From positions 1 to 57,089 of the IMG/VR virus record IMGVR_UViG_3300025087_001783: a DNA stretch of 57,089 nt, one strand, 5' to 3'. Every line of letters starts with the position of its first letter. Position 1 is the stretch's first letter. Shown here one piece after another: positions 10,189-45,853 of this stretch. The DNA is from a virus. Lineage: Duplodnaviria; Caudoviricetes. A program made the position numbers and the translations under genes. Under the pieces are notes generated by a model. The model saw only the letters and a list, made by a program, of their open reading frames with translations, was not told where the DNA came from and ran no database searches.

Positions 10189-10919
10189 TTAGTGGCTTTA
10201 CTTTTTGCCATAACAGTTTAGAGGGAGGCTATCCACTTGTAGAGGCTATTGACGCTGTGCGAGGTTGGGTGGATGAGATTGTGGTTGTTGACATGGCATC
10301 AACGGATGGTACTCGAGAGTTGCTGGAGCGAGAACATGTCAGGATTTTGGATGGGGAGTGGTTTGCTGGTAGTGACTGCCTGAAGAAAGCTCACGCCATG
10401 CACACCCAGTGTAAGGGAGATGTTATTATACACTTTGAGGCTGATGAAGTGTACGAAACAGGTTTGATCAGGCAAATTGTTGACATGCTGCATATCTGCG
10501 AGCAGCAGCAATTGAGCGTATGGCGTATACAGGTTGAACAGAATTTCCAGCGCGTGCGTTGGTATCCGCATATTGTGCATAGAGTATTCCCTAAGGGGAC
10601 TGCTATCAAGGATGGCGAGAGTACAAACCTGCGTGGTAACACTGCAGTCATTCCGCAGTGTTTCGGCATGCTGTGGGACATAACCTACAATTTTCGGGAC
10701 AATATTGTTGACAGGTGCGACAACAATGCGTTTTTGCATGGTGGGGATCCTAATTATCTGTTTGCTCCCAGTCATATATGTCAACCCTATCAGCTTACCA
10801 GGGAACAGCTTGTCGATTATCTTGACGAGCCACAGTGGAGATTTGTCAGTACTCCATTGAATATTCCACCTAATTTACGACCATTAGTAGGAAAGACCAA
10901 ATACGAGGCAAACCTATGA
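10185..10919 (+). CDS. Glycosyltransferase family 2
   Basis: VDEIVVVDMASTDGT and FEADE motifs. Confidence 0.8.
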   Translation: MISGFTFCHNSLEGGYPLVEAIDAVRGWVDEIVVVDMASTDGTRELLEREHVRILDGEWFAGSDCLKKAHAMHTQCKGDVIIHFEADEVYETGLIRQIVDMLHICEQQQLSVWRIQVEQNFQRVRWYPHIVHRVFPKGTAIKDGESTNLRGNTAVIPQCFGMLWDITYNFRDNIVDRCDNNAFLHGGDPNYLFAPSHICQPYQLTREQLVDYLDEPQWRFVSTPLNIPPNLRPLVGKTKYEANL

Positions 10920-11113
10920 AGATTAGAGACCTGATAAAAGCATTACAGTATATCGAAGAATCGTATGGAGATATTGAAGTACAACTACAGTCAGGGTTGC
11001 CGGAAAAAGCTCTTCCTGATTGGGTAAAGTATGTGTCATACCCTGAGTTCTTTGTTGTGCCAGAACTGTATGAAGAAGGTATGATAGTTAATTTGCGCAA
11101 TTGGCCATATTAG
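10916..11113 (+). CDS. Hypothetical protein
   Basis: 65-aa ORF with GAGG RBS, coupled to the upstream gene. Confidence 0.55.
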   Translation: MKIRDLIKALQYIEESYGDIEVQLQSGLPEKALPDWVKYVSYPEFFVVPELYEEGMIVNLRNWPY

Positions 11114-11120
11114 GTGTAGA

Positions 11121-11849
11121 ATGACTGTTGACTTTGTCACCTTTTGCTGTCCTAAGGATGTGCGCAGACTGGCAGTGCCTGGAGAACTGACTAATCGTGT
11201 AAACAGTCATGGTTATAAGTTCGACAATGTGTTTGTCGTCAGGCAGCGTTTGGCGAATGACTTTGACGACATTATCATTTCGTCATCGGATTTTACAGTC
11301 ACGGAAATTCGCAGCGAGGATCATCCCGATATCCTGGCTGAGTACAATATACCGGAGTTTGATGCACGCGCTGAGGATCTTACGCATGGCCCAAGCGCGG
11401 CGCACTACTGGAAGTGGCACGTCATCAACCACCTGATTGGATTGAAAGTCAGCACTGCTGATTACATCGTGTTTAGCGATTGCGATTGCAGGATTATCAA
11501 TCAAAAGTCACCTTGGGTGTTGAAAGCAATTGAGATCATTGAAGCGCACCCACAGCTGGTGTTGATCGTTGGGCCAAGCGATGGCGGTAACATGGCTGAG
11601 AGAATGTTACCAGGTGGCGTGCGATTAACGCAAAACGTTTCTCAGCAAATGTTCTTATGTAAGCGCGCGGTGTTTAAGTCAATAGATTTCGACCATCCAT
11701 GGGATGGTAAATTCACGGCTCCAGGAGGCCCTTTCCAGGAATATTATTGGCTTATGGAGGGTCGTATATGGAGAAATTTGCGAGCGCGTGGGATGTATAG
11801 AGCTATATTGCCAGAGGCATGGAGGTATTGGCATGATGGATGGCACTAG
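11121..11849 (+). CDS. Glycosyltransferase (GT-A-like)
   Basis: ADYIVFSDCD DxD motif; cluster context. Confidence 0.6.
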   Translation: MTVDFVTFCCPKDVRRLAVPGELTNRVNSHGYKFDNVFVVRQRLANDFDDIIISSSDFTVTEIRSEDHPDILAEYNIPEFDARAEDLTHGPSAAHYWKWHVINHLIGLKVSTADYIVFSDCDCRIINQKSPWVLKAIEIIEAHPQLVLIVGPSDGGNMAERMLPGGVRLTQNVSQQMFLCKRAVFKSIDFDHPWDGKFTAPGGPFQEYYWLMEGRIWRNLRARGMYRAILPEAWRYWHDGWH

Positions 11850-12351
11850 TGATAGAATGTTTGCAGAGTATTGCTTGACACATATCAAGCAGCTTGGAGT
11901 CTTGCAGTTGACATTTCCCGATACGCTAGACCTTCCAGGTTGTGAGTGCAAAAAGCTGGACGTGTACCAGGACGCGCGTGGAAGCCTAATTGAGCTTGTC
12001 AAAGAGCAATCATCCCTGACGATGTCCTATTGCAGCTACACCAAACCAACAGAAGCCCGCGACATGGATCGCTGGCATCTGCACAGACTTCAAACCGACA
12101 GGTTCTTCATCCTGCAAGGCAACTGCGTGTTTGGCTTGAGTGATGGCGAGAGAACTGTCAGGTTGGTGATGAGTGACGACAAGCCATGCATGCTGTACAT
12201 CCAACCTGGAATTTATCATTGTTTTCTGGCTGGTGCAAACGGAACGTTGTTAATCAACTTCCCGACCCAGCTGTTCAATCCTGATGATGAGTTGCGTATC
12301 CCGTTCAAAAATTTGGAGGCTCCCCACCCATGGAACATACTCGAGTCCTGA
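11833..12351 (+). CDS. rmlC: dTDP-4-dehydrorhamnose 3,5-epimerase-like cupin
   Basis: DARGSLIE, WHLHRLQTDRF, IQPGIYHCF; GGAGG RBS before ATG 11833; adjacent to rmlD. Confidence 0.8.
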   Translation: MMDGTSDRMFAEYCLTHIKQLGVLQLTFPDTLDLPGCECKKLDVYQDARGSLIELVKEQSSLTMSYCSYTKPTEARDMDRWHLHRLQTDRFFILQGNCVFGLSDGERTVRLVMSDDKPCMLYIQPGIYHCFLAGANGTLLINFPTQLFNPDDELRIPFKNLEAPHPWNILES

Positions 12352-13235
12352 TAACAGGCGCCAGCGGGCTGCTGGGAAAATATTTGTTGGGGTGCGTACC
12401 AGAGGGTGTTGAAGCGTTTGGCACGCATTACTGCAACTTCAATGGCAAGCAGGATTATCATTTGGATGTGCTGAGCACAGATGAAATCAATTATGTGTTC
12501 ATGTACGCGCGTCCGAATATCGTCATTCATTTGGCAGCGATTGGATCGGTTGATTTTTGTGAGCGAAACCCGTTCTTTGCGGACAGGGTCAATATTGGTG
12601 GGACTGCCCACATTGTTGATGCTTGCCAGCGATATGGTGCTAAAATTGTACTGTTGAGCACCAACGCTGTGTTTGATGGAACGCATCCACCGTACAAAGA
12701 GGAAGACCATCGCAACCCGCTTTCGGTATATGGGCATAGCAAAGTCAAGGCTGAGGATATTGTTGCGGAGTGTGATGACTTTTTGGTGGTGCGCACAGCG
12801 CGTATGTTTGGACGTAACTGGCGTGCAGGTAGGGACAACTGGCTGGACATTGTGCCTAATCGGCTGAGTGCTGGTAAGGTTCTTGAAGTTGTAACGGATG
12901 ATATTGGCAGACCAACCTATGCTGGTAATCTGGCTGAAACTGTATGGGACCTGCTAGAAATTGGCGCCAAAGGCTTCTATCACGTGGCAGGTGACGACAG
13001 TATTAGCATGTACCAGTTTGCGCGATTGATTGCCGAGACATACAACGTGTACCATGAGCATCCCCTGGACGTTGATCTAATCAAGCCTGTTACTACCAAA
13101 GAGAAATTTCCACATATTGCTACCAGGCCTGCTAACACAACGTTTGACCTGACAAAGTACTACAATACCAACGTGCGCAAGGTTGGAACCACGCAGCAAG
13201 GCTTGGATCGGATGGCAATACGAGGAGAGTTATGA
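12330..13235 (+). CDS. rmlD: dTDP-4-dehydrorhamnose reductase (SDR)
   Basis: ITGASGLLG, HLAA..VDFCE, STNAVFDG, YGHSK, PTYA, RP motifs. Confidence 0.9.
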   Translation: MEHTRVLITGASGLLGKYLLGCVPEGVEAFGTHYCNFNGKQDYHLDVLSTDEINYVFMYARPNIVIHLAAIGSVDFCERNPFFADRVNIGGTAHIVDACQRYGAKIVLLSTNAVFDGTHPPYKEEDHRNPLSVYGHSKVKAEDIVAECDDFLVVRTARMFGRNWRAGRDNWLDIVPNRLSAGKVLEVVTDDIGRPTYAGNLAETVWDLLEIGAKGFYHVAGDDSISMYQFARLIAETYNVYHEHPLDVDLIKPVTTKEKFPHIATRPANTTFDLTKYYNTNVRKVGTTQQGLDRMAIRGEL

Positions 13236-14080
13236 AACCTATCAGTGGTGCGACATTCATCAGAGACAACGAGGAAGGCGCGTTTTGCCTGTATGAAAGT
13301 ATGGCAAGCGTATTACCATTTGTTACTGACATGCACATCTTGGATGTCGGTAGTACTGATGGGACATTGCAGTGGCTGCAGTCTATTGCTGCAGTCAACC
13401 CAAAAATACACATACATCAGGGACGTTGGAGTGTTGTAGACGCGAAAGCGTTTGCGGACGCGGCCAATGATGCTATCTTGCTTTGTCAGAATGATGTGGT
13501 GTGGTTTTGGCAAGCGGATGAAATTCCCCACCAAAACGTGTTGAAGATGCTGCCTGAGTATATCAATACCCATGACAACCTGGTATTTTGGCGATATCAG
13601 CTGCGGGACAACTTCCAGGCGATGAAATGGTTCCCGCATCCTGTACACAGAATTGGAACCAAGCGCGACCTGCTATTGGTTGGGGATGGTATGAACACCA
13701 AGAACGTTTTTGGCTATGACGTTATTGGTGATTACAACCAGGGATGGTTCACAAAGTGGGGGACGATGAATGAGTTGGACATTCCTGTTGAGCAGATGGT
13801 GTTGGATGTCAGCCTGGTGGGGGCATTCAGGGAAAACATTATTGGAAGACGTAAACTGCATGCTCCGATGTGGCATGAAACGGATCATATCGAGGGCAAG
13901 AAACCCGACCAGTGGTACAAGGATGCGGTTGCTAATGATGCGTGGACAACGCAAACCACGCCATTCGATCTACCTGAAATTATGCGTTGGCATGTTGGTC
14001 GTGTAAAATATGCTATACGACCGCAGTTGATTGATGCATTGAAAGCTGATAGTACAGAGGAGATAATTGGTCTATTATGA
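13232..14080 (+). CDS. Glycosyltransferase family 2
   Basis: ILDVGSTDGT and WQADE motifs; paralogous to 10185-10919. Confidence 0.8.
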   Translation: MKPISGATFIRDNEEGAFCLYESMASVLPFVTDMHILDVGSTDGTLQWLQSIAAVNPKIHIHQGRWSVVDAKAFADAANDAILLCQNDVVWFWQADEIPHQNVLKMLPEYINTHDNLVFWRYQLRDNFQAMKWFPHPVHRIGTKRDLLLVGDGMNTKNVFGYDVIGDYNQGWFTKWGTMNELDIPVEQMVLDVSLVGAFRENIIGRRKLHAPMWHETDHIEGKKPDQWYKDAVANDAWTTQTTPFDLPEIMRWHVGRVKYAIRPQLIDALKADSTEEIIGLL

Positions 14081-14721
14081 AATTTACAATGAAACAACTG
14101 CAGGAATTGATTGCGATGGCGAAGGCTGATTTTGTCACACCAGATCCATATCTGAATAGTCAGCACGACGCGTCTACAAAGCTGATTGGGCATACCAACC
14201 CGTATTACCCGCTGTTTTATCTCATTTCCAAAACATTTCAGCCGGCAATGGTTGTTGAGCTTGGCAGCTGGCGAGCGTATGGCGCGTCCCATTTTGCTGG
14301 TGGCAATCCTGCTGGTAAGGTGGCAACCATTGACATCCACAAGGACGATCCTCTTGCCCAACAGCTTACGTTGGAAGCCCAGGCGCATTACGGTAACTTG
14401 AGATATTTTCATTCTTGGACGTGGGACGCTGTACCATTACTGCTGGAGCATTATGGTAAGCTGAGCATTGATGTGCTGTTTATTGATGCGTGGCATACCT
14501 ATGAGTATGCTATGCGGGAGTGGAAGCTATTTGGCCCGTACATGGCTGATAACTCTCTTGTGATTTGTGATGATCTGTTCAATGCTGCTGGCGCGTGCGA
14601 AAACATGATCCAGTGGTGGGAAGATTTTCAAAAAGATTCGCATATCAAAGAGAGCTTTCTGGATGGCGGGTTGCATCCTGGTGTTCCTATGGGATTTGCG
14701 AGGTATGTCAAAAATGGATAA
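14077..14721 (+). CDS. Class I SAM methyltransferase (Methyltransf_24-like)
   Basis: VELGSWRAYG, LFIDAWHTY, ICDD. Confidence 0.85.
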   Translation: MKFTMKQLQELIAMAKADFVTPDPYLNSQHDASTKLIGHTNPYYPLFYLISKTFQPAMVVELGSWRAYGASHFAGGNPAGKVATIDIHKDDPLAQQLTLEAQAHYGNLRYFHSWTWDAVPLLLEHYGKLSIDVLFIDAWHTYEYAMREWKLFGPYMADNSLVICDDLFNAAGACENMIQWWEDFQKDSHIKESFLDGGLHPGVPMGFARYVKNG

Positions 14722-15337
14722 TGTATTTGCCGATATCAACGAGTTAGTAAAACAGGCTGCGCAACCACTGGGTGATGAGTGGTTGGATGGGTACTACAAG
14801 GCATATCAGGATCATGTCAGCACACGGCTGAATTATTATCGCTTTTTGTATTTGATGGTTATGCATTTCAAGCCTGCTGTTGCTATCGAGTTGGGAGTTG
14901 AATTTGGGTTGGCATCGGCACATATGGCACGCGCTGCCGCCACATATGGTGGGACAGTCATTGGCGTAGATCATAACTATCACTCCGCACCTATGGAGAT
15001 TGTTGCGTATTGCAAGAACTACAACTACAGATTGGCAGATACCGTTGCAGCATTTCCGGATGTTAAGATGCTAGTGGATGGCAGGCCTGTCGGCTTGCTG
15101 TTCCAGGACTCGTCACACCACTATTTGGAGAGCAAGCGCGAGTTCGAGTTGTATTCAACCCTTATGTCAAAAGGTTCGTACTGGGTGTGTGATGACATTT
15201 TGCCAGCGTTCCATGATCCAAAGGTGGATCCTCCTGGAAAGGGGATGGTTGAATACTTTTGGGAATTGCCTGGTTATAAGCGCACCTATCCGGAGGTTCT
15301 AAATAAGGGTAATACTATAGGAATAGTAAAATTATGA
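14714..15337 (+). CDS. Class I SAM methyltransferase (Methyltransf_24-like)
   Basis: IELGVEFG, LFQDSSHHY, VCDD; start uncertain (14705 or 14714). Confidence 0.85.
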   Translation: MDNVFADINELVKQAAQPLGDEWLDGYYKAYQDHVSTRLNYYRFLYLMVMHFKPAVAIELGVEFGLASAHMARAAATYGGTVIGVDHNYHSAPMEIVAYCKNYNYRLADTVAAFPDVKMLVDGRPVGLLFQDSSHHYLESKREFELYSTLMSKGSYWVCDDILPAFHDPKVDPPGKGMVEYFWELPGYKRTYPEVLNKGNTIGIVKL

Positions 15338-15900
15338 TCACTGCTGGTCGTATTAGAGAGCTTGCCAAGCAGGCTCCAAATGAAAAAGTTTATCCAGATC
15401 AGCGATTCCCGCCGTCGATATACTACCGATTTATGAAGTTGCTGGCTGCGGAGATACAACCTACGAATAGCGTGGTATTAGGAGTGTGCGGAGGTGGGGA
15501 CTGTTTACATCTGGCGCAGGGATGGCCCGCTGGACAGGTGTATGGCGTAGATTATGCCAGGGATCACGTCGATAACATTAAGCATGTCGAGGCAACGTTC
15601 CCAAATTTTCATTTTCTGTGGAACGACTCGATTGATGTCATTAAATCCTTTGACAAGTTTAGCGGTCCGTGCGTGGATATATTGTTTATTGATACAATTC
15701 ATACCTATGAGCGTACCATTAGAGAATTTTATGCGTGGCAGCGTGTCCTCAATCCTGGTGCAGTGGTTATGCTGGATGATCTGTACAGGGATGGCATGCT
15801 TGCAGCATGGACAGATTTGCCTGGAGCAAAAATCCGATTGGACGAGTTGCATCTAGGTGGAAGTCCTACAGATGGCGGGTTTGGGGTGATATTGCTATGA
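15334..15900 (+). CDS. Class I SAM methyltransferase (Methyltransf_24-like)
   Basis: VVLGVCGG, LFIDTIHTY, MLDD. Confidence 0.85.
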   Translation: MITAGRIRELAKQAPNEKVYPDQRFPPSIYYRFMKLLAAEIQPTNSVVLGVCGGGDCLHLAQGWPAGQVYGVDYARDHVDNIKHVEATFPNFHFLWNDSIDVIKSFDKFSGPCVDILFIDTIHTYERTIREFYAWQRVLNPGAVVMLDDLYRDGMLAAWTDLPGAKIRLDELHLGGSPTDGGFGVILL

Positions 15901-16472
15901 GTGATGCACAAAACGTTGTTCAGCATTGTATAAAGATTGGTCTAGAGTACGATCCTCCCAAAGAGATATTGGAGTATTGTGGTGCGTATTATTCGCCGTA
16001 TTACAACTTTGCGTACGCGATGATGTGCGCTGCTGGAACGTATTGGCCATCGGTGGTTGCTGTAGAGTTGGGAGTTGAAAAAGCGCGCTGCTCTTTCAGT
16101 ATGCTGCAGTACGAAAATGGTATCGTGATCGGATTAGATACCCATCCAACTGTTGAAGCCAGCAGGCTGGCATTGCGAGAGCCACGCTTCATCTACCTCA
16201 ATCAACCCAGCTCCCAGGTTCCAGTCAATATACTTGAGCACAAGCGCATTTCCATTTTGCATATCGATACAGAGCATTCTTACGGCATGGCGAAAATGGA
16301 GTTTGAGGCATATTTCCCGTATTTGACGAATCCTGCATTTGTGTTGTTTGATGATATTCACGCCATGAACGACGATGTGTTGAAGTTCGTCAAGGAGCTG
16401 CCGTACTATAAAGTTATTGAAGATCGCTTGCATCCAATTTGTGGTTATGCTGTTGTGGCTGTGGAGACGTAA
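15897..16472 (+). CDS. Class I SAM methyltransferase (Methyltransf_24-like)
   Basis: VELGVEKA, LHIDTEHSY, LFDD. Confidence 0.85.
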   Translation: MSDAQNVVQHCIKIGLEYDPPKEILEYCGAYYSPYYNFAYAMMCAAGTYWPSVVAVELGVEKARCSFSMLQYENGIVIGLDTHPTVEASRLALREPRFIYLNQPSSQVPVNILEHKRISILHIDTEHSYGMAKMEFEAYFPYLTNPAFVLFDDIHAMNDDVLKFVKELPYYKVIEDRLHPICGYAVVAVET

Positions 16473-16473
16473 A

Positions 16474-18149
16474 ATGATTGTAAGTATTGTGACCGGCACC
16501 TATAATCGTCTCCAGCATTTGCACAACATGATCTACAGCGCGCGCAACTCAATTGGGTTGGGTATGGAGTATGAGATTATCGTTGTAGACGGTGGTAGTA
16601 CGGATGGCACGCTTGAATGGTGCAAGGAGCAGCCCGATGTCAAGCTGATTGAGCATGGGGAGCTGCGTGGCGCTGTGAAGGCATTCAATGATGGAGCGCG
16701 TGCCTCCAGTGGCTTGTATGTCATATTGGCGAATGACGATATCGTTTTTATTAACGAGAGTATCATGACAGCCGTGGCCTTTATGCAGGACAATCCTGGT
16801 GTTGGTATCGGCTGTTTTTATCAGGATCGTTACAAGCAGGATTGGCATGTTGAGCAAATGCCGGCAGTAATAAACGGACGCCAGATTAGCGCGTATTATG
16901 GGCAGGTTTGTATCGTACAACGTTGGTTGGGGGATCTTGTAGGTTGGTGGGGGGACTATTTGCGCACATATGGCGGGGATAATGAGCTGAGCTGCAATGT
17001 GCTGGAGGCAGGTTATAAGTACTGCCGATAGAATGTGCGCAGATACATGATACAACTCCCATGGATGGTTTGCGCAAGATCAATAATGATAATGTTATAA
17101 AACGTGGTAAGCACCCTGACACGGAGGCATTCGTCAAGCATTGGACACATGCAAATGGTAGAAAGGGTGCTATCATCAATTCCAAGCCGATACCTCGTCA
17201 GGATGTGCAACGCTTTCGGCGCGTTCTGTACGCACCAATTTACGAGCCAGGATACAGCATACAGAAGAAATCCAAACGAGGTTTGCGTGATGCACTGGCG
17301 AGGCGCATGTTGGTTGTGGAATGTGATTATGTTGCACAAACGTTCGATTATGTGTTCGACCTGGCGAACGCGTTTGATCCGGACCTGATTATCACTCAAA
17401 TTCAAAGCGTTGACATCAAGCTGAATGCTGAGACTATCAGGGAGTTACGCCACGAGCACCCAGGCGCCAAGTTTGTAAACTGGAATGGCGATTATCATCC
17501 TGAGCATCTATATAGTCCGGATTATATAGCTTTGCTTAAGCAGTTTGACTTGAATGGCTTTTGCACAACAGCAATTCAAGACAGGTACGAAGCGGAGGGA
17601 GTGCGTTGGTTCTACTGGCAAATAGGTTGCGAAGAGACCAACGTTGCATCTGATAAGTTTACACCCTGTTACGATTTGTTATTCTTGGCAAATGGTTATA
17701 GTGATGACCGCAAGCATCTGGTTGACATATTGCGTAGGCAGCGATTTACAACAGGTTTGTACGGTATTTGGCCTCCAGAGTATGGATCTAGAGGTAACAA
17801 CCTGTACGATTTTGACGGTGGTGCCAGGTTGTATCAGGCAAGCAAATTGGCACTGAGCGATAGCCAGTGGCCAGATGTGAACGGATATTGCAGTAACAGG
17901 CTGTTCCAGGCTATGGAAGCTGGTGCGTGCTTATTGCAGCAGCGGTTTGCAGGTATGGAGGAGTTATTAGGATTGGTGGATGGCGAGAATATCGTGGTTT
18001 GGGACAAGGCTGAAGATCTGCTGGATAGGATAGATTATTACTTGCACCATGACGAGGAGCGTCGCACTATAGCCAGGAATGCACGTGAGTTTATGCGTGC
18101 ACATCATAGCTTTGATGTGCGAGTGCAGGAATTGCTGGCGTATGTATAA
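16474..18149 (+). CDS. Two-domain glycosyltransferase (GT2 + CgeB-like GT-B) interrupted by a 1-nt frameshift near 17019
   Basis: 16474-17031 has SIVTGTYNR, VVDGGSTDGT, ANDD; a -1 shift at GGTTATAAG^T gives GYKVLPIECAQIHDTTPM, joining 17061-18149 (SNRLFQAMEAGACLL). Confidence 0.75.
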
Positions 18150-19413
18150 CGTCACGATTATCATCCCAGTTTATTGTACCAATCAGCAGGGATTGAATTG
18201 GCTGGATGAGTGTTTGCAGAGTGCATTGGCACAGGAATGCGCAGTGGTGGCATATGACGATGGATCTACGGTAAATGTTAGGGAGGTGCTAAGTAAATAT
18301 AATATAACATATTCCTATCGCGACGAGCACCTGGGTGTTAGTGCAGCAAGAAATGCTTGTGCTGAGCTTGCAAAAACATCGTTGATATTACCATTAGATT
18401 GTGATGACAGGCTCAAACCTGGTGCTGTAGAGAAACTGGTGTATAGATGGGCAGGTGTGCCAGTATACCCAGACCTGGAGAAATTTGGTAAGGTCCGTGA
18501 TCCGCATTACAGGTTGATGGATTTTCATTGTGATCACGTGCTAAACTATGTAGGATTTACAAGCGTGAACGTGCTGCACTCTGTAGAGCAGCATAAGGCA
18601 ATTGGTGGTTGGGACACCAGCCTGGATTTTTATGAAGATGGCGAGTATAATGCCAGGCTGTTGGGAACATATTGTGGACTTCATCTTGCGGAGCCGTTGG
18701 TTGAATACAGGATACATGACCACCAGCGCACGCAACAATATAAGAAGCAAGCAGCCCAGTACACAGCTGTCTTGCTCAATAAAATTAGGAGTTATGAAAT
18801 GGCCTGTAGAACATGTGGTGGAAAGCGCAGAACGGGTTTTGGCAACGATCCTACTCGTCCTGCTGCACAGACTAGTACACTCAATGCAACAGCTACTACG
18901 CGCGGTCCAATTGTTCAGGTGTCAGTTGGGGAAAGCTGGCGATCCTTGCCAAGCGAGTTCGAGGGCAGGATTTTGGCGCGTTATGTTGGCGGCAAGGGCA
19001 AAGGTCGGCATTACTATCAGGGTAAAATCTCTAACATTCCATATCGTGTTACTCATGGAGACGTGCTGTACGCGGACGCGCGGGATGTTCGGGATGCCGA
19101 GAACACTGCTGACACTCGCCAGCTGGTGCGTATCAAGCAGGAAGAGCTGGCGTCCAAGCCAGAGCCGGCAAAGGTTGTAGAGCCGGAGCTTCCCCAACTT
19201 GTTGAAGAGAAAGTTGAGCCGACTCCTGAACCTACTGCTCCAGTTGTCAAGGAGCTGCCTGAATTGAGCAACATGACAGTGGATGACGTGCTGGCACTGG
19301 ATTTGAGCGAACATGATGTACCAGCAATGATCCGTTCCGAGGCACGCGGCAAGAATCGCAAGGTTGTTATCAGCTACCTGAAGAACAAGGTGAAGCGTGG
19401 TGGAGCTAAATGA
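18142..19413 (+). CDS. Glycosyltransferase family 2 fused to a CxxC-starting, Pro/Glu-rich region ending in a LEM/Rho-N-like helical domain
   Basis: TIIIPVY, YDDGS, PLDCDD, GGWD..YEDGE; in-frame internal AGGAG+ATG at 18799 (MACRTCGG); C-terminal EARGKNRKVVISYL. Confidence 0.75.
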   Translation: MYNVTIIIPVYCTNQQGLNWLDECLQSALAQECAVVAYDDGSTVNVREVLSKYNITYSYRDEHLGVSAARNACAELAKTSLILPLDCDDRLKPGAVEKLVYRWAGVPVYPDLEKFGKVRDPHYRLMDFHCDHVLNYVGFTSVNVLHSVEQHKAIGGWDTSLDFYEDGEYNARLLGTYCGLHLAEPLVEYRIHDHQRTQQYKKQAAQYTAVLLNKIRSYEMACRTCGGKRRTGFGNDPTRPAAQTSTLNATATTRGPIVQVSVGESWRSLPSEFEGRILARYVGGKGKGRHYYQGKISNIPYRVTHGDVLYADARDVRDAENTADTRQLVRIKQEELASKPEPAKVVEPELPQLVEEKVEPTPEPTAPVVKELPELSNMTVDDVLALDLSEHDVPAMIRSEARGKNRKVVISYLKNKVKRGGAK

Positions 19414-26152: not shown

Positions 26153-26364
26153 TTAAGCATATTGTAAAATCGTTTGATTTGTTGGTTAAGCTCATGGATG
26201 CAGCAAATATACTGCAAGTGCCATATGAAGTCACGAAAACGTATATTGACAAGAAACGTGGTGATGGATCTGTTGATGGAGTTGCACAATACACGATTAC
26301 TATCCACTCAAACGAGAATGAGACTCGTGAATTGCAGGAATCAATTTGGGACGGTATGCGATGA
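26149..26364 (+). CDS. Hypothetical protein
   Basis: 71-aa ORF coupled by ATGA overlaps. Confidence 0.55.
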
Positions 26365-26963
26365 TTGGTCCAATGAGCGACAAGCGTATCAGGGAATTAT
26401 GCACTGGCGACAATCCAATGATCGAGCCATTTGTTGATGAGAATGTGCGAGAAATCAGTGGTGCATCGACTGGAAATTACAGGTTTGCTAAGAAAGTTAT
26501 ATCCTATGGGTTGTCCTCGTATGGGTATGATATGCGTTTGGCAACCGATTTCAAGATAGTTACCAGCTTGTATGCTGGAATTATCGATCCGAAGAACATT
26601 GATGCCTTGCACATGCATGAAGAGCATTCAGAGGACTATATTATCATTCCACCAAATGCGTTTGCTTTGGCTCACACGGTTGAATACTGGCGCATCCCTC
26701 GCAACGTGGTAGGTATCGTGCTTGGGAAGAGCACGTACGCGCGCTGCGGGTTGATCGCAAATGTCACAGCCCTGGAGCCAGGCTGGGAGGGGCATCTGAC
26801 GATTGAATTATCAAACAGTGCTCCCCTGCCGCTGAAGGTGTATGTTGGCGAGGGAATTGCACAGTGCATCCTGTTCGAAGCCTCCGAAGAGTGCGAAGTG
26901 TCCTACGCTGACAAGCAGGGAAAATACCAGGCGCAAACAGGTATTACCCTGCCGCGATTGTGA
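26361..26963 (+). CDS. dcd: dCTP deaminase
   Basis: [44 protein letters not shown]. Confidence 0.95.
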
Positions 26964-32195: not shown

Positions 32196-33254
32196 ATGGC
32201 CTCCGCGATTAAAGACAACCCGTTCTCCGCAGATTATCATTTACTGTATTTTGCTGAATTTGTGAAAGCTGTGCAGGATGCTGGTGGAACCACACCGCAT
32301 ATGCTGATGACAGTCGAGTCCGCAAGGCGCCAAAAGCACACGGATGAAAAACTGTGGTGGGCAGGTTGTTATGCGTTCGTGTACAACTACGCCAGCGCGG
32401 AGGTTTTATACAACCACTGGCGTCCAGGAGAATGGACTGTGGACGAACTATCTAAGTGGATTGGCGAAAACTGGAAGGGCATTAAGTTTCGCAAGGAGCG
32501 CAAGGCTGCTAGGAGCGTGGCGCGCTTGACAACTTGCATGCAAACGTACTATGATTTTATGGAGCGCGTTCCGGATCGTGATTGGTTCCGCAGCAAAAAT
32601 GGGTATTCCGGTGGGGAGCGTTATAACGCCGCGTTTGAGGATATATGCAACAATGTAAAGTACATGGGCAGATATATTGCAATCCGGTGGTTGGAGGTTG
32701 TGCGGCGCGTGTTTGACATCGACATGGAGATGCCTGACTTGCGGTCCAGGGATGGCGATCATCCTCGCAAGGCATTGGCACTGATGTATCCGGAGCATCT
32801 GACTGCACTGATGGGTGGCAACTCTGATGCTGAAATTGCTGAAACGGATGAGGTTGTTGAGATTTGCAAAGAGGACTTGCGCAAGCTGTATGGCGTCAAA
32901 ACGGATTATTACACCATGCAGTCGCTGCTGTGCGAGTATAAGCAGAGCTGCCTTGGGCGCAGACAATATCCTGGCAAGTCCGTTGACAGCGAGTTGTCAT
33001 ACTTCGAAAAGGTTTGCACGGATTGGTGGGGGGATGCGTTTCGTGAGCAGACAATCATGTACGACGTTCGTAGAACGATATTTCCATCCTACATGCTTGG
33101 AGAGGTCCAGGGTTGGAGTGGAGTACGCGAGGAGCTGGGTAATGTGCTGGTTGACCATGGCTATACTTGGAGTGACAGGGTGTATAATTATGTCAAAACC
33201 AAGGATTTTTCCAATCCTGTGTTGCGGTCTAGCAAGGTTACGAGTATTCTATGA
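32196..33254 (+). CDS. Amino acid:DNA transferase-like protein (aGPT-Pplase2/ADDT family)
   Basis: KYMGRYIAIRWLE, HPRKAL, QSLLCEYK..YPG motifs; adjacent to a kinase and aGPT-Pplase1. Confidence 0.7.
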   Translation: MASAIKDNPFSADYHLLYFAEFVKAVQDAGGTTPHMLMTVESARRQKHTDEKLWWAGCYAFVYNYASAEVLYNHWRPGEWTVDELSKWIGENWKGIKFRKERKAARSVARLTTCMQTYYDFMERVPDRDWFRSKNGYSGGERYNAAFEDICNNVKYMGRYIAIRWLEVVRRVFDIDMEMPDLRSRDGDHPRKALALMYPEHLTALMGGNSDAEIAETDEVVEICKEDLRKLYGVKTDYYTMQSLLCEYKQSCLGRRQYPGKSVDSELSYFEKVCTDWWGDAFREQTIMYDVRRTIFPSYMLGEVQGWSGVREELGNVLVDHGYTWSDRVYNYVKTKDFSNPVLRSSKVTSIL

Positions 33255-33685
33255 GAGCCACACCTATTTTACCAGGGAAATTATACCAGGGTCCAGAGTT
33301 CGGTAACAGGCCTTTGCAGGAGAAATTATCATTAATCAGGGATAATAGGATTGATGTCGTAATTAATGTTTACAAGAATCCTGATGTCAAGTTGCGAGAG
33401 AGGATGTACGAGTATATCTATTTCCCTATGTCGGATGGAAAAACATTCAATGCACTGGAGCTGATGGATCTTGCGGAGCGCGCTGCGGATTTGCTCAGGG
33501 CAGGTTATGTTATTTATACCCACTGCCATGCTGGCAGGAATCGCAGTGGATTCCTGAACGCGTTGATTGTTAGGGACTATTGCAATATTCCCGGTCATCA
33601 GGCATTGCAGCATGTCAGGCAAATGCGACCGCGCGCTGTTGACAACGAGTATTTTGAGTGGTTCTTAGAGGAGATTGATGCATGA
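33251..33685 (+). CDS. Dual-specificity/protein-tyrosine phosphatase-fold protein
   Basis: HCHAGRNRS (HCX5R), upstream PMSD acid loop, VRQMRP. Confidence 0.9.
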   Translation: MRATPILPGKLYQGPEFGNRPLQEKLSLIRDNRIDVVINVYKNPDVKLRERMYEYIYFPMSDGKTFNALELMDLAERAADLLRAGYVIYTHCHAGRNRSGFLNALIVRDYCNIPGHQALQHVRQMRPRAVDNEYFEWFLEEIDA

Positions 33686-34287
33686 TCATACAGTTGCGCG
33701 GCACATCAGGATCAGGCAAAACCTATACCGCTCGATCGTTTATGGAGTGCTATGCTCCCGACATTCAAATTTGTGATATTGGCGGCAAGACTGTTGCGCA
33801 TTGCGTGTATTGGGAGATGCAACCTGTATACTTGTTGGGCAGTTACAAGAATGTTTGTGGGGGATGCGATAGCATCAGCAGTCAGGACATGGTTTGCAGC
33901 CTGGTGCGGCATTTCAGCCAGTTTGGGCATGTAATTTTCGAGGGCCTGATAATGTCGCACTTATACGCGCGCTATGCAGCGTTGGCAGATGAGATGTCAG
34001 AAGCTGGGGATGTATTTACGTTTGCGTTTATGGATACTCCACTAGAGTTGTGCTTGGAGCGTATCGTACAGCGCAGGATTACCAAAGGTAATTATAAGGA
34101 GCTTAATCCTGACAATACGATTGGCAAGTACGAATCTACGCATGCTGTGGCAGAAAAGCTCAGGAAAGCTGGGTACAACGTTGTTTGGATCAATCATAAG
34201 AAAACTCCTGTTACACAGCTGATCAGTTTGCTGCATAAAGACAACATACCATTTGAGCAGTCCTATCGGGAGGAAAGTTTCCGATGA
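33682..34287 (+). CDS. P-loop nucleotide/DNA kinase of base-modification clusters
   Basis: IIQLRGTSGSGKT, GSY..CGGCD, FEG, CLERIVQRR. Confidence 0.75.
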   Translation: MIIQLRGTSGSGKTYTARSFMECYAPDIQICDIGGKTVAHCVYWEMQPVYLLGSYKNVCGGCDSISSQDMVCSLVRHFSQFGHVIFEGLIMSHLYARYAALADEMSEAGDVFTFAFMDTPLELCLERIVQRRITKGNYKELNPDNTIGKYESTHAVAEKLRKAGYNVVWINHKKTPVTQLISLLHKDNIPFEQSYREESFR

Positions 34288-35174
34288 AGCTGAAAGCGTC
34301 GCATGTTGCTAGATATTTTCAATTCTGCGCAGAACGGCATGCAATATATGCATGTAGGCAACGCGGCGATGAGTGGCCATGGACAACCAACGAAATCCTG
34401 AAAACATACAAGTTTACCAATGTATACAGAGAGTTAGACATTGGGACGGTATGGTTGCGAGAGAACATTCGTGGGCCGTATGCTGATGATCCGGAGCTGT
34501 TTTTCAATATTGCATTGTATCGCAGGTACAACTATTGGCCCATGGCTGAATGTATAGGATATGTTGATGTTTACGAGGAAGTGCTACAGCTTCCTGACAT
34601 AGCGCGCTCTTACAAAACGCACGGTGGGCAGGTGTTTACAGGTGCGCACATGATTAACTGCCCAAAACCGTTCAAAAGCAAGATCGACTACGTGTTTGAT
34701 ATTGGCGCCAAAGAGCTGTGGGAAAAGCGCAGGGGTATAGAGGATTGTCATTCATTGCAGGAAGCGTTCAACTGGCTGAAAACATTGGGAGGTTTTGGCC
34801 CATTTATTAGCTATGAGGTTGTTACAGATTTGCGTTGGACGCGCTATTTACAAGACGCTCCTGACATAAATACTTGGGCAAACCCTGGTCCTGGGGCACA
34901 GCGTGGTATATTGCGGTTGATGGACTACCCTATCAACAATCATGCAGGCCTCCCAAAGCTACCACCAGGGGTAAAGTGTCCTGGCAGCTTTATTGCTGCA
35001 ATGCAGGCACTGTTAGAAAAATCCAGGAGCGTTCTGCCTGATTGGATGCCGGCATTTGAATTAAGGGATGTGGAGCACAGCTTGTGCGAATTTGACAAGT
35101 ACGAGCGTGTCAGGACTGGCGAGGGTCGTCCAAGAAGCAAGTTCGTACCGCCACATTTACGCGATCAAGTTTAG
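34284..35174 (+). CDS. aGPT-Pplase1 / 5-hmdU DNA kinase helical-domain family protein
   Basis: ERH.IY..PWT..IL..YKFTNVYRELD, GFGPFISYEVVTDL, GPGAQRG, EHSLCEFDKY. Confidence 0.85.
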   Translation: MKLKASHVARYFQFCAERHAIYACRQRGDEWPWTTNEILKTYKFTNVYRELDIGTVWLRENIRGPYADDPELFFNIALYRRYNYWPMAECIGYVDVYEEVLQLPDIARSYKTHGGQVFTGAHMINCPKPFKSKIDYVFDIGAKELWEKRRGIEDCHSLQEAFNWLKTLGGFGPFISYEVVTDLRWTRYLQDAPDINTWANPGPGAQRGILRLMDYPINNHAGLPKLPPGVKCPGSFIAAMQALLEKSRSVLPDWMPAFELRDVEHSLCEFDKYERVRTGEGRPRSKFVPPHLRDQV

Positions 35175-35180
35175 TTAAAT

Positions 35181-35465
35181 ATGAACACCAAGCAATATTA
35201 CCTAGAGCTGACAGATAAGGAAAAAGAAGACGCCAAGAATTTCCATAACGCTGTTGTTGCTGCGGTTGATAAGTTTGCGGCAACCTACGGATATATGCCA
35301 AGCTGTGTGTATATGCGCGAGGATCAGATAATTGATGGGTTTGTAATACCTGCGAAAGTTGCTCCGCAGCCGCCATACCATATCATGCTTGGCCCATATG
35401 TAATTGCTCGCACCCCTAAGATATTCATAGGAGTTAGAAATGGAAAACGAAATCACAAAAGCTAA
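35181..35465 (+). CDS. Hypothetical protein
   Basis: 94-aa ORF within the cluster. Confidence 0.55.
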   Translation: MNTKQYYLELTDKEKEDAKNFHNAVVAAVDKFAATYGYMPSCVYMREDQIIDGFVIPAKVAPQPPYHIMLGPYVIARTPKIFIGVRNGKRNHKS

Positions 35466-35877
35466 GACTCTTGAAGTCACTGCTGACGATTTGTACAAGG
35501 ATTTATCTGGAAAGGCTGGTGATCATGTCAATGATGTCAATGTGCTGATGTCATTGCTGCACAACCTACACGTTGCCAAGGAGCGAGTGTACAATTTATC
35601 ATTTTGCCGGAGAGGTCTGGTTGGAGTTTGGATGAACCTGGCTCGCAAGTATGACAGGATCGATGCCATGTCCTGCTCCGAAGACTATCGCAATTTTACC
35701 TATATTGACACGCTATTTGACACGGCTGCGTACGCGCTGAAGATGATTGATATCCTGCGCAAGATGTACCCAGAGGCATTTGACAAGTGGCTGGAGAACG
35801 TGTATTGCGAATACACTGGACATAGTATCACTCACGTTCGTAAGATACTGAATGGGGATGGAAATGAACAGCGATAA
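35440..35877 (+). CDS. Nucleotide-modification-associated domain (Nmad1/DUF1599-like, MazG-fold)
   Basis: AK..Y..RKYDRI..DTLFDTAAYA pattern; AGGAG RBS. Confidence 0.6.
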   Translation: MENEITKAKTLEVTADDLYKDLSGKAGDHVNDVNVLMSLLHNLHVAKERVYNLSFCRRGLVGVWMNLARKYDRIDAMSCSEDYRNFTYIDTLFDTAAYALKMIDILRKMYPEAFDKWLENVYCEYTGHSITHVRKILNGDGNEQR

Positions 35878-36053: not shown

Positions 36054-38609
36054 ATGAGCAATCCTTCTGAGACCAACGAGGTTTGCATAAAGTGTGGATT
36101 GTGGAAGGGATGCAAAACACCATTTATGCCCGCTCATGGCCCAGAGGATGCAAAGCTGACGATTGTAGGAGAGGCTCCTGGAGCACAGGAGGATGAGATT
36201 GGAATACCGTTTGTTGGACAGAGTGGGGAATTGTTGCGTAATGTATTGCGGGAGGTTGGTTTTGATCCTGAGAAGGATGTCAGATATACGAACGTCGTAC
36301 GTTGCAGGCCTCCGGACAATAAACTAGGTTCGAAGGCGATTATCAAAGCCTGTAGCCAATTTGCCCATCAAGAGCTGGCTGGCACCCCACAAGGGCAAAT
36401 TTGGTTGATGGGAGGCAGTGCTCTCATGGGGATTCTAGGAGAAGTTGGCATCACTGCTTGGAACGGGATAAAGGTAGAAAAGGGTGGAAATACCTTTGTC
36501 CCACTCTATCACCCTGCTTATATTCTGCGCAATATGAACATGCTGGACGAGTGGTTGGATGCCATGCTGAAGGCAGTAGATGGAGAAGAGGAGCGTAAGG
36601 GTTTTGAGCGCGTGATTATCAATACTGTGCAGGGCATGCTAGAGATGCAGCTGGACCTCGCGGAGTATGATGTTATCAGTTACGACACAGAGACCAGCGA
36701 TCTCAATCCATATGCTGAGTACAGCTTCGTACTGTCTGCCAGCTTTGCCAGGCCTGGACGCGCGTACGCATTTCCATTAGATCATCCAGAAACACCATGG
36801 TCTGTAGCTGAGCGGGAGCAGGTATATGATATATTATGCGATGTATTGATGTCGCATAACGGTCGTGTTGTTGGACACAATATCAAGTTTGACCAGCTGC
36901 ATACATTGGCTTATGCGGACATAGATTTTGCTGCTGGTGGGGACAGCATGCTTATCAGCCACTTGCTGGATAGTCGCAGAGGTATTCATGGATTGAAGCA
37001 TTTGGCAGGTATGCACCTAGGAATGTATGAGTATGAACAAGAACTATCTATTTATATTAACAGTCATCCAGAGGCAAACCCACATAAAGGTGGTTCGTAT
37101 GCTTTTGTACCTTTGGACATTTTGTTGCCATATGGTGCTATGGATGCAGAGGCCACGTTATTACTGGTTGAAAAGTTGTATGATAGTTTATCGGACGCGC
37201 AGCGGACGCTTTATGACGAGATGGTGATACCTGCCAGCAATGTACTGTGTCGTATGCAGAGTAATGGGTTGAATCTGGACACGTACATTGCAGCGCGTTA
37301 TGCTAAGATTTACAACTGGCGCCAGCATCGTTTGTACGAGGAGTTGCAAAACGATCCTAAGGTTCGTAGGATGGTCAAAAAACATGCTACGAACAAGAAA
37401 TGGAAATTCAACCCAAACTCGTCGTACCACTTGTCAGAGCTGTATTTTGAGCAGTATAAAATACCTGTTGTTGGAGAAACTCCAAAGGGCAGGCCGTCCA
37501 CAAGCGCGAAGCTGTACAAGAACCTTGAGGAAAGATTTCCAATATTACACAAAGTGCGATATTATAAGTTGCTGACAAAAATGCTTGGGACATACATTGA
37601 GCCTGTACAGGGGAAGTGGTTGTCAGCAGATGGTAGGGTGCGTTCTACATACTTGCTGCACGGGACTGTTACCGGCAGGCTTGCCTCTGAGCAGCCAAAT
37701 TTACAAAACATTCCCACACCCGAAAAAGAGCCAGGTACATTGCTGGAAACCTTGCCAATCAAGAATGTGTTTACTCATACCTACAAGGGTGGGTTGGTGA
37801 TGAGTGTTGACTATAGTGGTATGGAGCTGAGAGTATTTGCAAGCGTTGCAAAATGCATGTTGATGATATCTATTCACAAGAGCGGGCTGGATTTCCATAG
37901 AATGGTTGCAGCTTTGAGCTTGCGCATGATCAGCAAAAACGATATGCTGCAGGTGGATGATTGGGCATATGCAAAAGCACAATTCCAGCCAATCATAGGA
38001 CAGATAGACAAGCCGACGCGTTATGTTTACAAATGGACGAACTGGACATTATTGTACGGTGGCGACGAGTACACGTTGCACCGTATGTACGACGTGCCCA
38101 TTGAAGACGCGCAGGAAACCGTGCGTATGTATTATGACATGTTCCCAGAAGTGCTTGAGTACAGGGAAAGTTGTAGGGAGTTTGCTGAGGATCATGGCTA
38201 TATAGAGAGTCCGTTCGGGCGCAGGGCACAATTGCCGTACATCAATGACAGAGATAATGGAAAACGCAACAAGGCTGTGCGAGAAGCAGTCAATATGCCT
38301 GTGCAGTCAGCAGCCAGTGATACACTGTTGTGCGCTGCTATTATCATTAATAGGTATATGCAAGAGCAATGCATGAAGTCTATGCTTGTAAATACTGTGC
38401 ACGACAGCTTGATGATTGACGCGCATCCAAAGGAAATAGAGCATTTGGCATATCTGTGCAAGACTCGTATGGAGAATATCAGTAAGTACGCGGCAGTGCA
38501 AATGCCAAATGTGGATTTCAGCTGGCTTATAAGCCCGCTTAAGGCAGATGTAGATGTCGGCACCCATTATGGTGTCATGGAGGATATTGACGAATGGATG
38601 AAAAAGTAG
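36054..38609 (+). CDS. polA: Family A DNA polymerase with N-terminal family-4 uracil-DNA-glycosylase-like domain
   Basis: CIKCGL..VGEAPG..PFVG..CRPP..HPAY (UDG); DTET, HNIKFD, YGAMD (3'-5' exo); TGRLAS..PNLQNIP, DYSGMELR, NMPVQS, VHDS. Confidence 0.95.
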   Translation: MSNPSETNEVCIKCGLWKGCKTPFMPAHGPEDAKLTIVGEAPGAQEDEIGIPFVGQSGELLRNVLREVGFDPEKDVRYTNVVRCRPPDNKLGSKAIIKACSQFAHQELAGTPQGQIWLMGGSALMGILGEVGITAWNGIKVEKGGNTFVPLYHPAYILRNMNMLDEWLDAMLKAVDGEEERKGFERVIINTVQGMLEMQLDLAEYDVISYDTETSDLNPYAEYSFVLSASFARPGRAYAFPLDHPETPWSVAEREQVYDILCDVLMSHNGRVVGHNIKFDQLHTLAYADIDFAAGGDSMLISHLLDSRRGIHGLKHLAGMHLGMYEYEQELSIYINSHPEANPHKGGSYAFVPLDILLPYGAMDAEATLLLVEKLYDSLSDAQRTLYDEMVIPASNVLCRMQSNGLNLDTYIAARYAKIYNWRQHRLYEELQNDPKVRRMVKKHATNKKWKFNPNSSYHLSELYFEQYKIPVVGETPKGRPSTSAKLYKNLEERFPILHKVRYYKLLTKMLGTYIEPVQGKWLSADGRVRSTYLLHGTVTGRLASEQPNLQNIPTPEKEPGTLLETLPIKNVFTHTYKGGLVMSVDYSGMELRVFASVAKCMLMISIHKSGLDFHRMVAALSLRMISKNDMLQVDDWAYAKAQFQPIIGQIDKPTRYVYKWTNWTLLYGGDEYTLHRMYDVPIEDAQETVRMYYDMFPEVLEYRESCREFAEDHGYIESPFGRRAQLPYINDRDNGKRNKAVREAVNMPVQSAASDTLLCAAIIINRYMQEQCMKSMLVNTVHDSLMIDAHPKEIEHLAYLCKTRMENISKYAAVQMPNVDFSWLISPLKADVDVGTHYGVMEDIDEWMKK

Positions 38610-44673: not shown

Positions 44674-45140
44674 AGTGCTACATAGGCATTGATCCTGGTA
44701 AAGCAGGGGGAGTGGCAGTTATTGCAGATAATGGCATTGACTGTATATTTCCAATACCTTTGGCTGGTAAGGACATCGATGCTGCAATGTTGGCTGCGAA
44801 AATATATGACTTGAGTGAAGTGTACGATTGCGTTGTTTGCATAGAGAAAGTCACAGCTATGCCAGGGCAAGGTGTCACATCAACATTTTCATTTGGAGTT
44901 GGGTTTGGGATTTTACTAGGTATTTGTGCAGCGTTGGTGCTGCCAGTGCACCTGGTCACACCGCAAGCCTGGAAAAAAGTCATCCTGGCTGGTACAACCA
45001 AGGACAAAGCGGCAGCAATCAGTTACGTGTCTAGAGCATATCCAGGGGTGAGTTTGCTGGCAACAGCGCGCTCTAGGAAGCCACACGACGGCATTGCAGA
45101 TGCAATCTGCATTGCGGAGTATGCCTCTAGAACCTATTGA
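44670..45140 (+). CDS. RuvC-like Holliday junction resolvase
   Basis: IGIDPG, IEKV, FSFG, PQAWKK, DGIADA. Confidence 0.85.
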   Translation: MKCYIGIDPGKAGGVAVIADNGIDCIFPIPLAGKDIDAAMLAAKIYDLSEVYDCVVCIEKVTAMPGQGVTSTFSFGVGFGILLGICAALVLPVHLVTPQAWKKVILAGTTKDKAAAISYVSRAYPGVSLLATARSRKPHDGIADAICIAEYASRTY

Positions 45141-45853
45141 CTATTATCTTCGATAATGACGCGACCACCAAGCTGGTGCTTGAATGGCAGCAGAGCGGTG
45201 ATCAAGAAGTTCTAGACGCAATCTTCCAAAATACCAGGGCATTAATTGAGGCAATTGTTAGTTCGTACGATTCTACATGTAGAGCGGACTTAATACAAGT
45301 TGCATCAGTTAAGTTGCAGTATGCCTTGAAGTATTTTAATCCGAGGATTGCGTGTCTTCACACATATTTTACTACTGTAATCCATAATGAGTGCAAAACC
45401 TATGTGCGTAGGCACGCGCGTCAAGACGGCATGCTGGATAATTTGGAGATGTTCGAAGAATGTGCAGGTGATTTGGAGCCAACGCTCGATGATGACAGCA
45501 TGCTGGAGGATCTTATGCTGCGCAACCGTAGACGATTTCCAAGTTTTGACACATGTGTAATTGATGACATTACCACATATATCTATGACGCGTTGCAAGG
45601 TAATTTGTTTAGTAGTACACGCAAACTGATAGCAGACCTCGTGCTGCGGTATGATTTGCCAAAGCCAGTGGCGACCATTGTGTATCAGAGCACCTTAGTT
45701 TACCTGCGATCATTAGCGATGACGAAAATCGTACGGTCTGAGTGCAAGCTGGACGAGTTTTCCATTCACCAGGATTTGAGAGAGATAATGGGGGAAGATG
45801 TATATGCAAAATTGTCGTTATTGTTTAGCAATATCACCCTAAAATTGAATTAG
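45137..45853 (+). CDS. Sigma70-like factor (region 2), possible late sigma factor
   Basis: WQQSGD....AI..LIEAI..DLIQ..AL.YFNP..LHTYF..IHN pattern; TTG start; immediately precedes the late-promoter motif. Confidence 0.6.
   Translation: MTIIFDNDATTKLVLEWQQSGDQEVLDAIFQNTRALIEAIVSSYDSTCRADLIQVASVKLQYALKYFNPRIACLHTYFTTVIHNECKTYVRRHARQDGMLDNLEMFEECAGDLEPTLDDDSMLEDLMLRNRRRFPSFDTCVIDDITTYIYDALQGNLFSSTRKLIADLVLRYDLPKPVATIVYQSTLVYLRSLAMTKIVRSECKLDEFSIHQDLREIMGEDVYAKLSLLFSNITLKLN

Follow-up and report, generated by a model that had tools for sequence, protein, structure and literature searches.

Hypermodifications of thymidine shield phage DNA from restriction and other nucleases, and the pathways that build them are a source of base-acting enzymes. 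To our knowledge, the appended groups characterised to date derive from amino acids or polyamines. In the described pathways, 5-hydroxymethyl-dU (5-hmdU) in DNA is phosphorylated by a kinase to 5-phosphomethyl-dU (5-PmdU); the cysteine of a clade-2 Pplase, the DNA transferase ADDT, then attacks C6, the phosphate is expelled, and a nucleophile joins the exocyclic methylene (Lee et al. 2021, PMC8989533). Phages M6, PaMx11, and ViI all proceed via 5-PmdU, and the tailoring slot of the gene cluster holds a pyridoxal-phosphate (PLP) decarboxylase and a radical-SAM isomerase in M6, and an FAD lyase and an acetyltransferase in PaMx11 (PMC8989533). The partners named in the main text of that paper are radical-SAM, PLP, flavin, amidoligase, and glutaminotransferase enzymes, with neither a phosphatase nor an inositol synthase among them, and its protein table for M6, PaMx11, ViI, SP10, and PhiW-14 likewise contains no phosphatase.

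The locus described here occupies positions 32196-35877 of a virus record (Duplodnaviria; Caudoviricetes; IMG/VR record IMGVR_UViG_3300025087_001783) that was analysed over its whole length of 57,089 bases (hereafter, the window). The window is one linear IMG/VR record with a CheckV completeness of 73%, and all of its long open reading frames (ORFs) are carried on the + strand. No near-identical DNA was found among 50,697 phage records. The locus is a cassette for post-replicative hypermodification of thymidine via 5-hmdU, in which the slot between transferase and kinase is filled by a PTP-fold dual-specificity phosphatase (DSP). This phosphatase is a genuine, conserved third component of these cassettes across a large clade with no cultured member so far.

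Composition of the cassette

The genes of the cassette, the polymerase gene that follows it, and the dCTP deaminase gene located upstream were assigned as follows.

32196-33254, +, ADDT, a DNA transferase of the aGPT-Pplase2 clade, 352 aa (PF18724, E 1.1e-14)
33251-33685, +, CX5R dual-specificity (PTP-fold) phosphatase, 144 aa (DSPc PF00782, E 9.8e-10; P-loop HCHAGRNRS)
33682-34287, +, P-loop 5-hmdU DNA kinase, 201 aa (PF18748, 28.0 bits at a cut-off of 27; Walker A GTSGSGKT)
34284-35174, +, aGPT-Pplase1 / HMUDK_hel helical protein, 296 aa (PF18723, E 1.1e-46)
35181-35465, +, ORF of 94 aa (no Pfam, PHROG, or NCBIfam match)
35440-35877, +, ORF of 145 aa, tentatively a divergent Nmad1-like protein (transitive homology only)
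36054-38609, +, family-A DNA polymerase (PolA) with an N-terminal uracil-DNA glycosylase (UDG) and a 3'-5' exonuclease, 851 aa (PF03167, E 2.1e-25; PF01612, E 3.8e-16; PF00476, E 8.4e-72)
26346-26963, +, dCTP deaminase (dcd), a source of dU nucleotides (PF22769, E 9.8e-35; TIGR02274, E 9.7e-46)

The ADDT, DSP, kinase, and aGPT-Pplase1 genes are joined successively by 4-nt overlaps. This run, as well as dcd, had been proposed in the initial annotation, made from the letters of the window and its translated ORFs, and was confirmed by the Pfam matches and overlaps. The proposal that the genes hypermodify thymidine was supported by the Pfam identities and by the gene order of YuA-like clusters, which in Pseudomonas phage PAC6 and Stenotrophomonas phage Sonora is Pplase2, variable slot, kinase, Pplase1, Nmad5, thymidylate synthase (TS), and PolA.

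The kinase was 29% identical (E 1e-15) to the Yuavirus PAC6 kinase, a predicted 5-hmdU DNA kinase (5-HMUDK) that is taken, by synteny, to be the ortholog of M6 gp54. The PF18723 family is labelled aGPT-Pplase1 in several phage records, and the window protein was ~39% identical to the YuA-like ones. In the ADDT, Cys246 (motif LLCEYKQ) aligned with the cysteine of the Yuavirus and Sonora aGPT-Pplase2 proteins and was invariant in 9/9 clade members. The glutamate near this cysteine is placed differently: YuA-type proteins have Glu at -4, where the window has Gln242, and the window has Glu247 at +1 (residue numbers are not given in the text of PMC8989533). The nearest relatives of the window ADDT were those of loci L007 (63-65% identity) and L117 (58%); here and below, relatives are cited by L numbers for loci and G numbers for records.

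The Nmad1-like assignment of the initial annotation gained indirect support. The 145-aa ORF had no Pfam match even at E<=10, and its pairwise comparison with the Nmad1 protein of L006 gave E 0.11. An iterative hidden Markov model (HMM) built from it reached its positional equivalents L003:4132-4542 and L006:11323-12081, both of which are PF07659 (DUF1599) Nmad1 proteins, with drift of the model possible. In three other loci (L102:6404-8008, L120:190-1737, and L124:1445-2953), a TS-family hydroxymethylase-like gene was fused to or abutted a domain of the 145-aa ORF family. These fusions and abutments tie the small Nmad1-like family to the hydroxymethylase step.

Linkage of the phosphatase to the transferase and kinase

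Across the clade, 42 distinct ADDT sequences were counted, the window included, and their loci were scanned with HMMs from our own alignments. Of the loci behind this count, 80 were fetched with myo-inositol-1-phosphate / inositol-3-phosphate synthase (MIPS) as the query. The other locus sets were seeded with the phosphatase (9 loci) or with ADDT (18 loci), both in viral contigs, and with the ADDT subclade of the window in metagenomes (8 loci). Single-protein queries with the phosphatase or with ADDT gave no pattern match in viral contigs; the loci were obtained with alignment queries.

A DSP gene was located at most 760 bp downstream of the ADDT gene in 41 of the 42 distinct ADDTs, the exception being L111, which has a radical-SAM/SPASM gene there. 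The kinase HMM also matched 41 of these 42 loci, and the remaining one (L102) carries a Ploopntkinase3 gene; Pplase1 was found within the fetched flanks of 24/42. When the phosphatase was used as the seed, an ADDT homologue was found immediately upstream in 8 of the 9 loci, and six of those eight (L003, L004, L006, L008, L009, and L010) had a kinase homologue downstream, directly so except in L009. In the metagenome set, the DSP followed ADDT in all five assessable loci of the eight. The core order in the clade is ADDT-DSP-kinase, and the phage backbones that carry it are very different. In a 99-kb phage record, a single 354-aa ORF (L005:9992-11056), directly after ADDT and MIPS, consists of a DSP (aa 29-145) fused to a P-loop kinase (aa 152-305). 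One complete record (G011) contains an ADDT of the clade with neither a phosphatase nor MIPS. The linkage of phosphatase and ADDT in other genomes, on which the initial annotation had made its reading depend, was thereby borne out.

In a quick maximum-likelihood tree, a branch with 100% SH-aLRT support divides the 42 ADDTs of the clade from the YuA-type ones. The window ADDT groups within the clade and is only 18-19% identical to the YuA-type proteins.

The catalytic Cys92 and Arg98 of the DSP were retained in 47/47 family members, and Asp62, the general acid, in 38/47. The AlphaFold2 model (pLDDT 96.9) has a minimal DUSP fold, and the fold search matched it to MKP5, DUSP1, and Tk-PTP (TM ~0.8), with protein phosphatases as the nearest solved structures. 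Relatives of the DSP are few (8 clusters in a collection of 5.8 billion proteins). No match was obtained in cultured phages by tblastn with the window DSP, and the DSP of L113 gave only weak matches (E 4e-5 to 6e-4) to stand-alone mycobacteriophage and Rhodococcus DSPs, all on records different from those that matched ADDT. Scanned by motif with the phosphatase alignment, the genomes of 185,579 species gave 14 pattern matches, none of which was a relative, and no DSP adjoining ADDT was found in the searches of cultured phages.

No description of a DSP or of MIPS in a cassette of this kind came up in the literature search (the figures and supplements of PMC8989533, which lay outside that search, might show some), in line with the earlier remark that a PTP-fold phosphatase was not known as a characterised component. 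In that search, publications joining inositol with thymidine hypermodification contained inositol in glycosyltransferase names only. The phosphatase is apparently a real, undescribed component of the pathway.

Inositol-phosphate synthase and the role of the phosphatase

The usual partner of the phosphatase in relatives is MIPS (PF01658, E 1e-34 to 1e-38), encoded 0-1 genes upstream of ADDT and often accompanied by an FkbM or class-I SAM methyltransferase gene. The MIPS of G001, the closest complete relative of the window (78,810 bases with direct terminal repeats; proteins 30-64% identical to those of the window), aligned from end to end with Mycobacterium tuberculosis Ino1 (1GR0; E 4e-138). 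MIPS adjoined 36 of the 42 distinct ADDTs, a sample that was largely MIPS-seeded, and a DSP was present in 36/36 of these MIPS-positive cases. Among the best 80 MIPS loci in viral contigs, 39 had an ADDT of the clade and 37 had both ADDT and the phosphatase; the other two end at ADDT. The sets seeded otherwise gave MIPS in 12 of the 18 ADDT loci (none in 4, 2 not assessable) and in 6 of the 8 ADDT-DSP loci obtained with the phosphatase (none in 1, 1 not assessable). In L117, MIPS abuts an ADDT with 58% identity to that of the window, and the P-loop of the window DSP is identical to that of the MIPS-positive L003 and L004 (51% identity overall).

Phage MIPS genes were also seen elsewhere. The other 41 of the best 80 viral MIPS loci (in the range L059-L101) lack this ADDT clade, and in many a partial TS-family match precedes MIPS by 0.5-3 kb, so that a link of phage MIPS to further hydroxymethyl-pyrimidine systems is possible. 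The phage locus L092 has MIPS but no ADDT; the ORF after its MIPS was checked for a HAD phosphatase and gave only a weak methyltransferase-like match. In the cultured 159-kb Stenotrophomonas phage Moby (L116; MN095772.1, 28187-33601), inositol-3-phosphate synthase lies inside a FolE-MIPS-x-QueC-TGT-QueE (7-deazaguanine) run, a hint that a different DNA-modification system may use cyclitols too.

On these grounds, we see about an even chance that the clade is an inositol-type thymidine hypermodification family in which the DSP removes a cyclitol phosphate. In such a pathway, MIPS would convert glucose-6-phosphate to inositol phosphate, ADDT would couple the cyclitol through one of its hydroxyls, in the way described for serine in ViI, and the DSP would strip the cyclitol phosphate, most likely once the group is bound to DNA and less likely while the metabolite is free. 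The former is favoured because the gene lies in the tailoring slot, is fused in one case to the DNA kinase, and belongs to a class of enzymes that usually act on phosphates borne by macromolecules; the data agree just as well with loss of the phosphate from free inositol phosphate ahead of the transfer. The product would be a base of the inosityl-oxymethyl-dU type, O-methylated in some phages. The 5-hmdU would most likely come from a dUMP hydroxymethylase of the MilA type whose gene lies off the contig and which would be fed by dcd, and the UDG-polymerase would clear stray dU. For the MIPS-less phage of the window, the source of inositol phosphate (or of a different phosphorylated alcohol) would be the host or the ~27% of the genome missing from the record. 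The DSP substrate and the order of the steps are what we infer from gene content. The base is probably of the cyclitol type in the clade, and it may be of that type or of another in the MIPS-less phage of the window. A more specific proposal is offered tentatively and with somewhat less than even confidence: the DSP would be the first phosphatase acting on a group attached to a DNA base, with ADDT installing inositol phosphate, the DSP dephosphorylating it on DNA to give a cyclitol-ether thymidine, which would be a so far undescribed class of DNA base, and the window's phage drawing on host inositol phosphate.

Several observations weigh against a cyclitol phosphate as the substrate. The MIPS statistics are inflated because the sampling was MIPS-seeded. 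There is no PF01658 match in the 57 kb of the window, where the gap between the upstream gene and ADDT is 70 bp, and most members of the window's ADDT subclade have no MIPS nearby (L102, L118, L120, L122/L123, and L124; L007, L119, and L121 were not assessable). The complete 96.7-kb record G004 carries the ADDT-DSP pair and MIPS nowhere, and the pair was likewise found with no MIPS match in G009 (62% complete) and G010 (35% complete). The DSP thus has a closer link with ADDT and the kinase than with MIPS, which fits a MIPS-independent role too. The fold result shows a generic DUSP fold alone, with nothing pointing to inositol phosphatases. A Pfam scan of the neighbours in MIPS-less loci gave methyltransferases, a HAD hydrolase (L009), a radical-SAM/TET-associated-glycosyltransferase fusion (L007), and P-loop kinases, with no common substitute for MIPS.

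The MIPS-less members are scattered in the ADDT tree. One subclade, with full support and a long stem, unites the window with L007 and L102 and branches from among MIPS-positive ADDTs. The window cassette looks mosaic, because its ADDT is nearest to that of L007 and its phosphatase, kinase, Pplase1, and polymerase are nearest to those of the MIPS-positive L003, L004, and L006 (46-61% identity). In L007 (1505-5127), the locus with the closest ADDT (63%), the cassette is extended by another, weakly DSP-like ORF, a divergent kinase gene, and a fusion of radical-SAM and TET-associated-glycosyltransferase domains (716 aa). The genes downstream in L007 and L102 had no tblastn matches in the window.

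The initial annotation had the phosphatase editing or finishing a phospho-intermediate. Dephosphorylation of an inositol-phosphate group is the better-founded role, since the usual partner of the phosphatase in relatives is inositol-3-phosphate synthase; editing of the 5-phosphomethyl group itself, with the DSP as a DNA-nucleobase phosphatase that returns 5-PmdU to 5-hmdU at sites unused by the transferase, is unlikely, although it is the strongest of the alternatives. It would explain why the DSP stays with ADDT and the kinase where MIPS is absent (the window, G004, G009, and G010) and why the two proteins are fused in L005, and the radical-SAM/TET-associated-glycosyltransferase fusion after the L007 cassette could use free 5-hmdU. 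Reversal of 5-PmdU would, however, set up a futile cycle with the adjacent (in L005, fused) kinase and would leave the DSP in all 36 MIPS-positive cassettes unexplained. M6, PaMx11, and ViI also use 5-PmdU and, as far as the protein table cited above extends, manage with no phosphatase, as SP10 and PhiW-14 do, and none was found beside ADDT in the cultured phages searched.

Slightly less probable still is that, in the MIPS-less subclade including the window, ADDT attaches another phosphorylated host metabolite (e.g., a sugar phosphate, glycerol phosphate, or a phospho-amino alcohol), which the DSP trims to give a different base. The long-stemmed, fully supported subclade of the window, L007, and L102 among MIPS-positive ADDTs, the lack of adjacent MIPS in most of its metagenomic members, and the retention of a DSP with intact catalytic residues there all fit this reading. 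It is opposed by L117, in which an ADDT 58% identical to that of the window has an abutting MIPS, and by the P-loop of the window DSP, identical to that of MIPS-positive relatives; no alternative substrate-making enzyme was found beside the window cassette.

The initial annotation had noted no hydroxymethylase or TET/JBP gene, which is true of the 57 kb (no match to the TS-like PF00303 or to the TET/JBP family PF12851) and does not stand as a feature of the pathway. The absence says little about the phage, because the record is a linear fragment that is 73% complete. A TS-family gene (PF00303) was present in 4 of 5 related records with the same ADDT-phosphatase pair, including 3/3 of those at least 90% complete, and within the fetched flanks of 28 of the 42 distinct ADDTs. 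In G001, ~34 kb separate this gene from the cassette; it belongs to a 36-kb block (11.3-47.1 kb) that the window lacks and is 2.2 kb upstream of the first gene held in common with the 5' end of the window. Its product matched the CMP hydroxymethylase MilA (E 2e-28) better than it did true thymidylate synthases (E 1e-12) and was 39% identical over the core to the YuA-type homologue. Most likely, the missing hydroxymethylase is an artefact of the fragment, with the gene located just off the contig end. Its position there is only suggested, a point that counts against this account, because the first ~780 aa of the cut ORF at the 5' end of the window (ORF1) have no counterpart in G001. The terminase family PF03237 had no match in the window or in three complete relatives and is thus uninformative on a missing packaging module.

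That the phage truly has no dUMP hydroxymethylase, and makes its hydroxymethyl or phosphomethyl pyrimidine by another route, as in the variant pathway of the initial annotation, is improbable. The missing PF00303 and PF12851 matches agree with it, as does the empty slot between Pplase1/Nmad and the polymerase, where YuA-like clusters have their TS gene; this is countered by the incompleteness of the record, by the TS-family genes of the three complete relatives, among which G001 has its own far from the cassette, and by the kinase, dcd, and UDG-polymerase, which would presuppose a supply of 5-hmdU derived from dU. Finally, the DSP is very improbably a phosphatase of proteins or RNA ends that serves host takeover and merely sits in the operon, as its protein-phosphatase-like fold and closest structures and the stand-alone DSPs of mycobacteriophages might suggest, given its constant position between ADDT and kinase in 41/42 distinct cassettes on very different backbones, its 4-nt overlaps with both neighbours in the window, its fusion to the kinase in L005, and the lack of any relative in the motif-based scan of species' genomes.

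Other genes of the window and comparison with known systems

A glycan-biosynthesis island is located at 6930-19413 and contains four GT2 and two GT1-like glycosyltransferases, five Methyltransf_24 (rhamnosyl-O-methyltransferase-like) proteins, an RmlD-like reductase, and an FdtA/WxcM-like isomerase. It is interrupted by a GIY-YIG/NUMOD3 homing endonuclease gene (9409-10188), and only its last four genes are present in G001. Virion proteins, the host surface, and DNA are candidate targets of the island. The RmlD-like protein was used as a host hint in a scan of species' genomes and gave no match. The 5'-cut ORF1 (1-3756, 1251 aa) has a LigT/2H-phosphoesterase-like domain (a weak Acb1-like match) and DUF3990, and an intein (~aa 979-1185) is inserted in a domain homologous to a 222-aa protein of G001. 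A sigma-70 region-2 protein is encoded at 45137-45853, downstream of the RecA and 5'-3' exonuclease genes.

Taken with the usual inositol-phosphate synthase, the cysteine-based phosphatase would imply a DNA base of a new chemical class, with a cyclitol or another polyol attached, as well as an enzyme of a new kind, which removes phosphate either from a group appended to the base or from the nucleobase itself. The window serves as a MIPS-less contrast, by which the needs of the phosphatase can be separated from the supply provided by the synthase. It also illustrates that pathway genes 'missing' from IMG/VR fragments are weak evidence.

In cells, inositol is made in two steps, by Ino1/MIPS and then by inositol monophosphatase (IMPase). 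The relatives of the window resemble this canonical synthesis in pairing an Ino1-type synthase with a phosphatase. They differ from it in that the phosphatase is a cysteine-based DSP, not an IMPase or HAD enzyme, and is set among DNA-modifying enzymes, and the window itself has no synthase.

Among the closest systems are the Pseudomonas YuA-like phages M6 and PaMx11 (5-NedU / 5-AcNmdU), whose clusters, as described in PMC8989533, have a glycine:DNA transferase as aGPT-Pplase2 and include a dUMP hydroxymethylase. With them the window shares the core enzymes, the gene order, the slot between transferase and kinase, and the catalytic cysteine. The slot of the window holds a DSP, unlike the PLP/radical-SAM or FAD-lyase/acetyltransferase pairs reported there. 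Further differences from M6 and PaMx11 are that the window's clade is usually headed by MIPS and that its polymerase is fused to UDG. Unlike YuA-like clusters, the window has no TS gene between Pplase1/Nmad and the polymerase or elsewhere in the fragment.

For the coupling step, Salmonella phage ViI (5-NeOmdU), with its serine:DNA transferase gp247, provides by its description a precedent for the formation of an ether by an ADDT with an oxygen nucleophile (PMC8989533). Unlike the proposed cyclitol transfer, the ViI pathway described there relies on a free amino acid as substrate, includes a PLP decarboxylase, and has no phosphatase or MIPS. UDG-fused PolA has been reported for the T-hypermodified phages SP-15 and YerA41 (bioRxiv 10.1101/2025.03.26.645540), and the window resembles these phages in its domain layout, with UDG, exonuclease, and PolA joined in one protein of a hypermodification phage.

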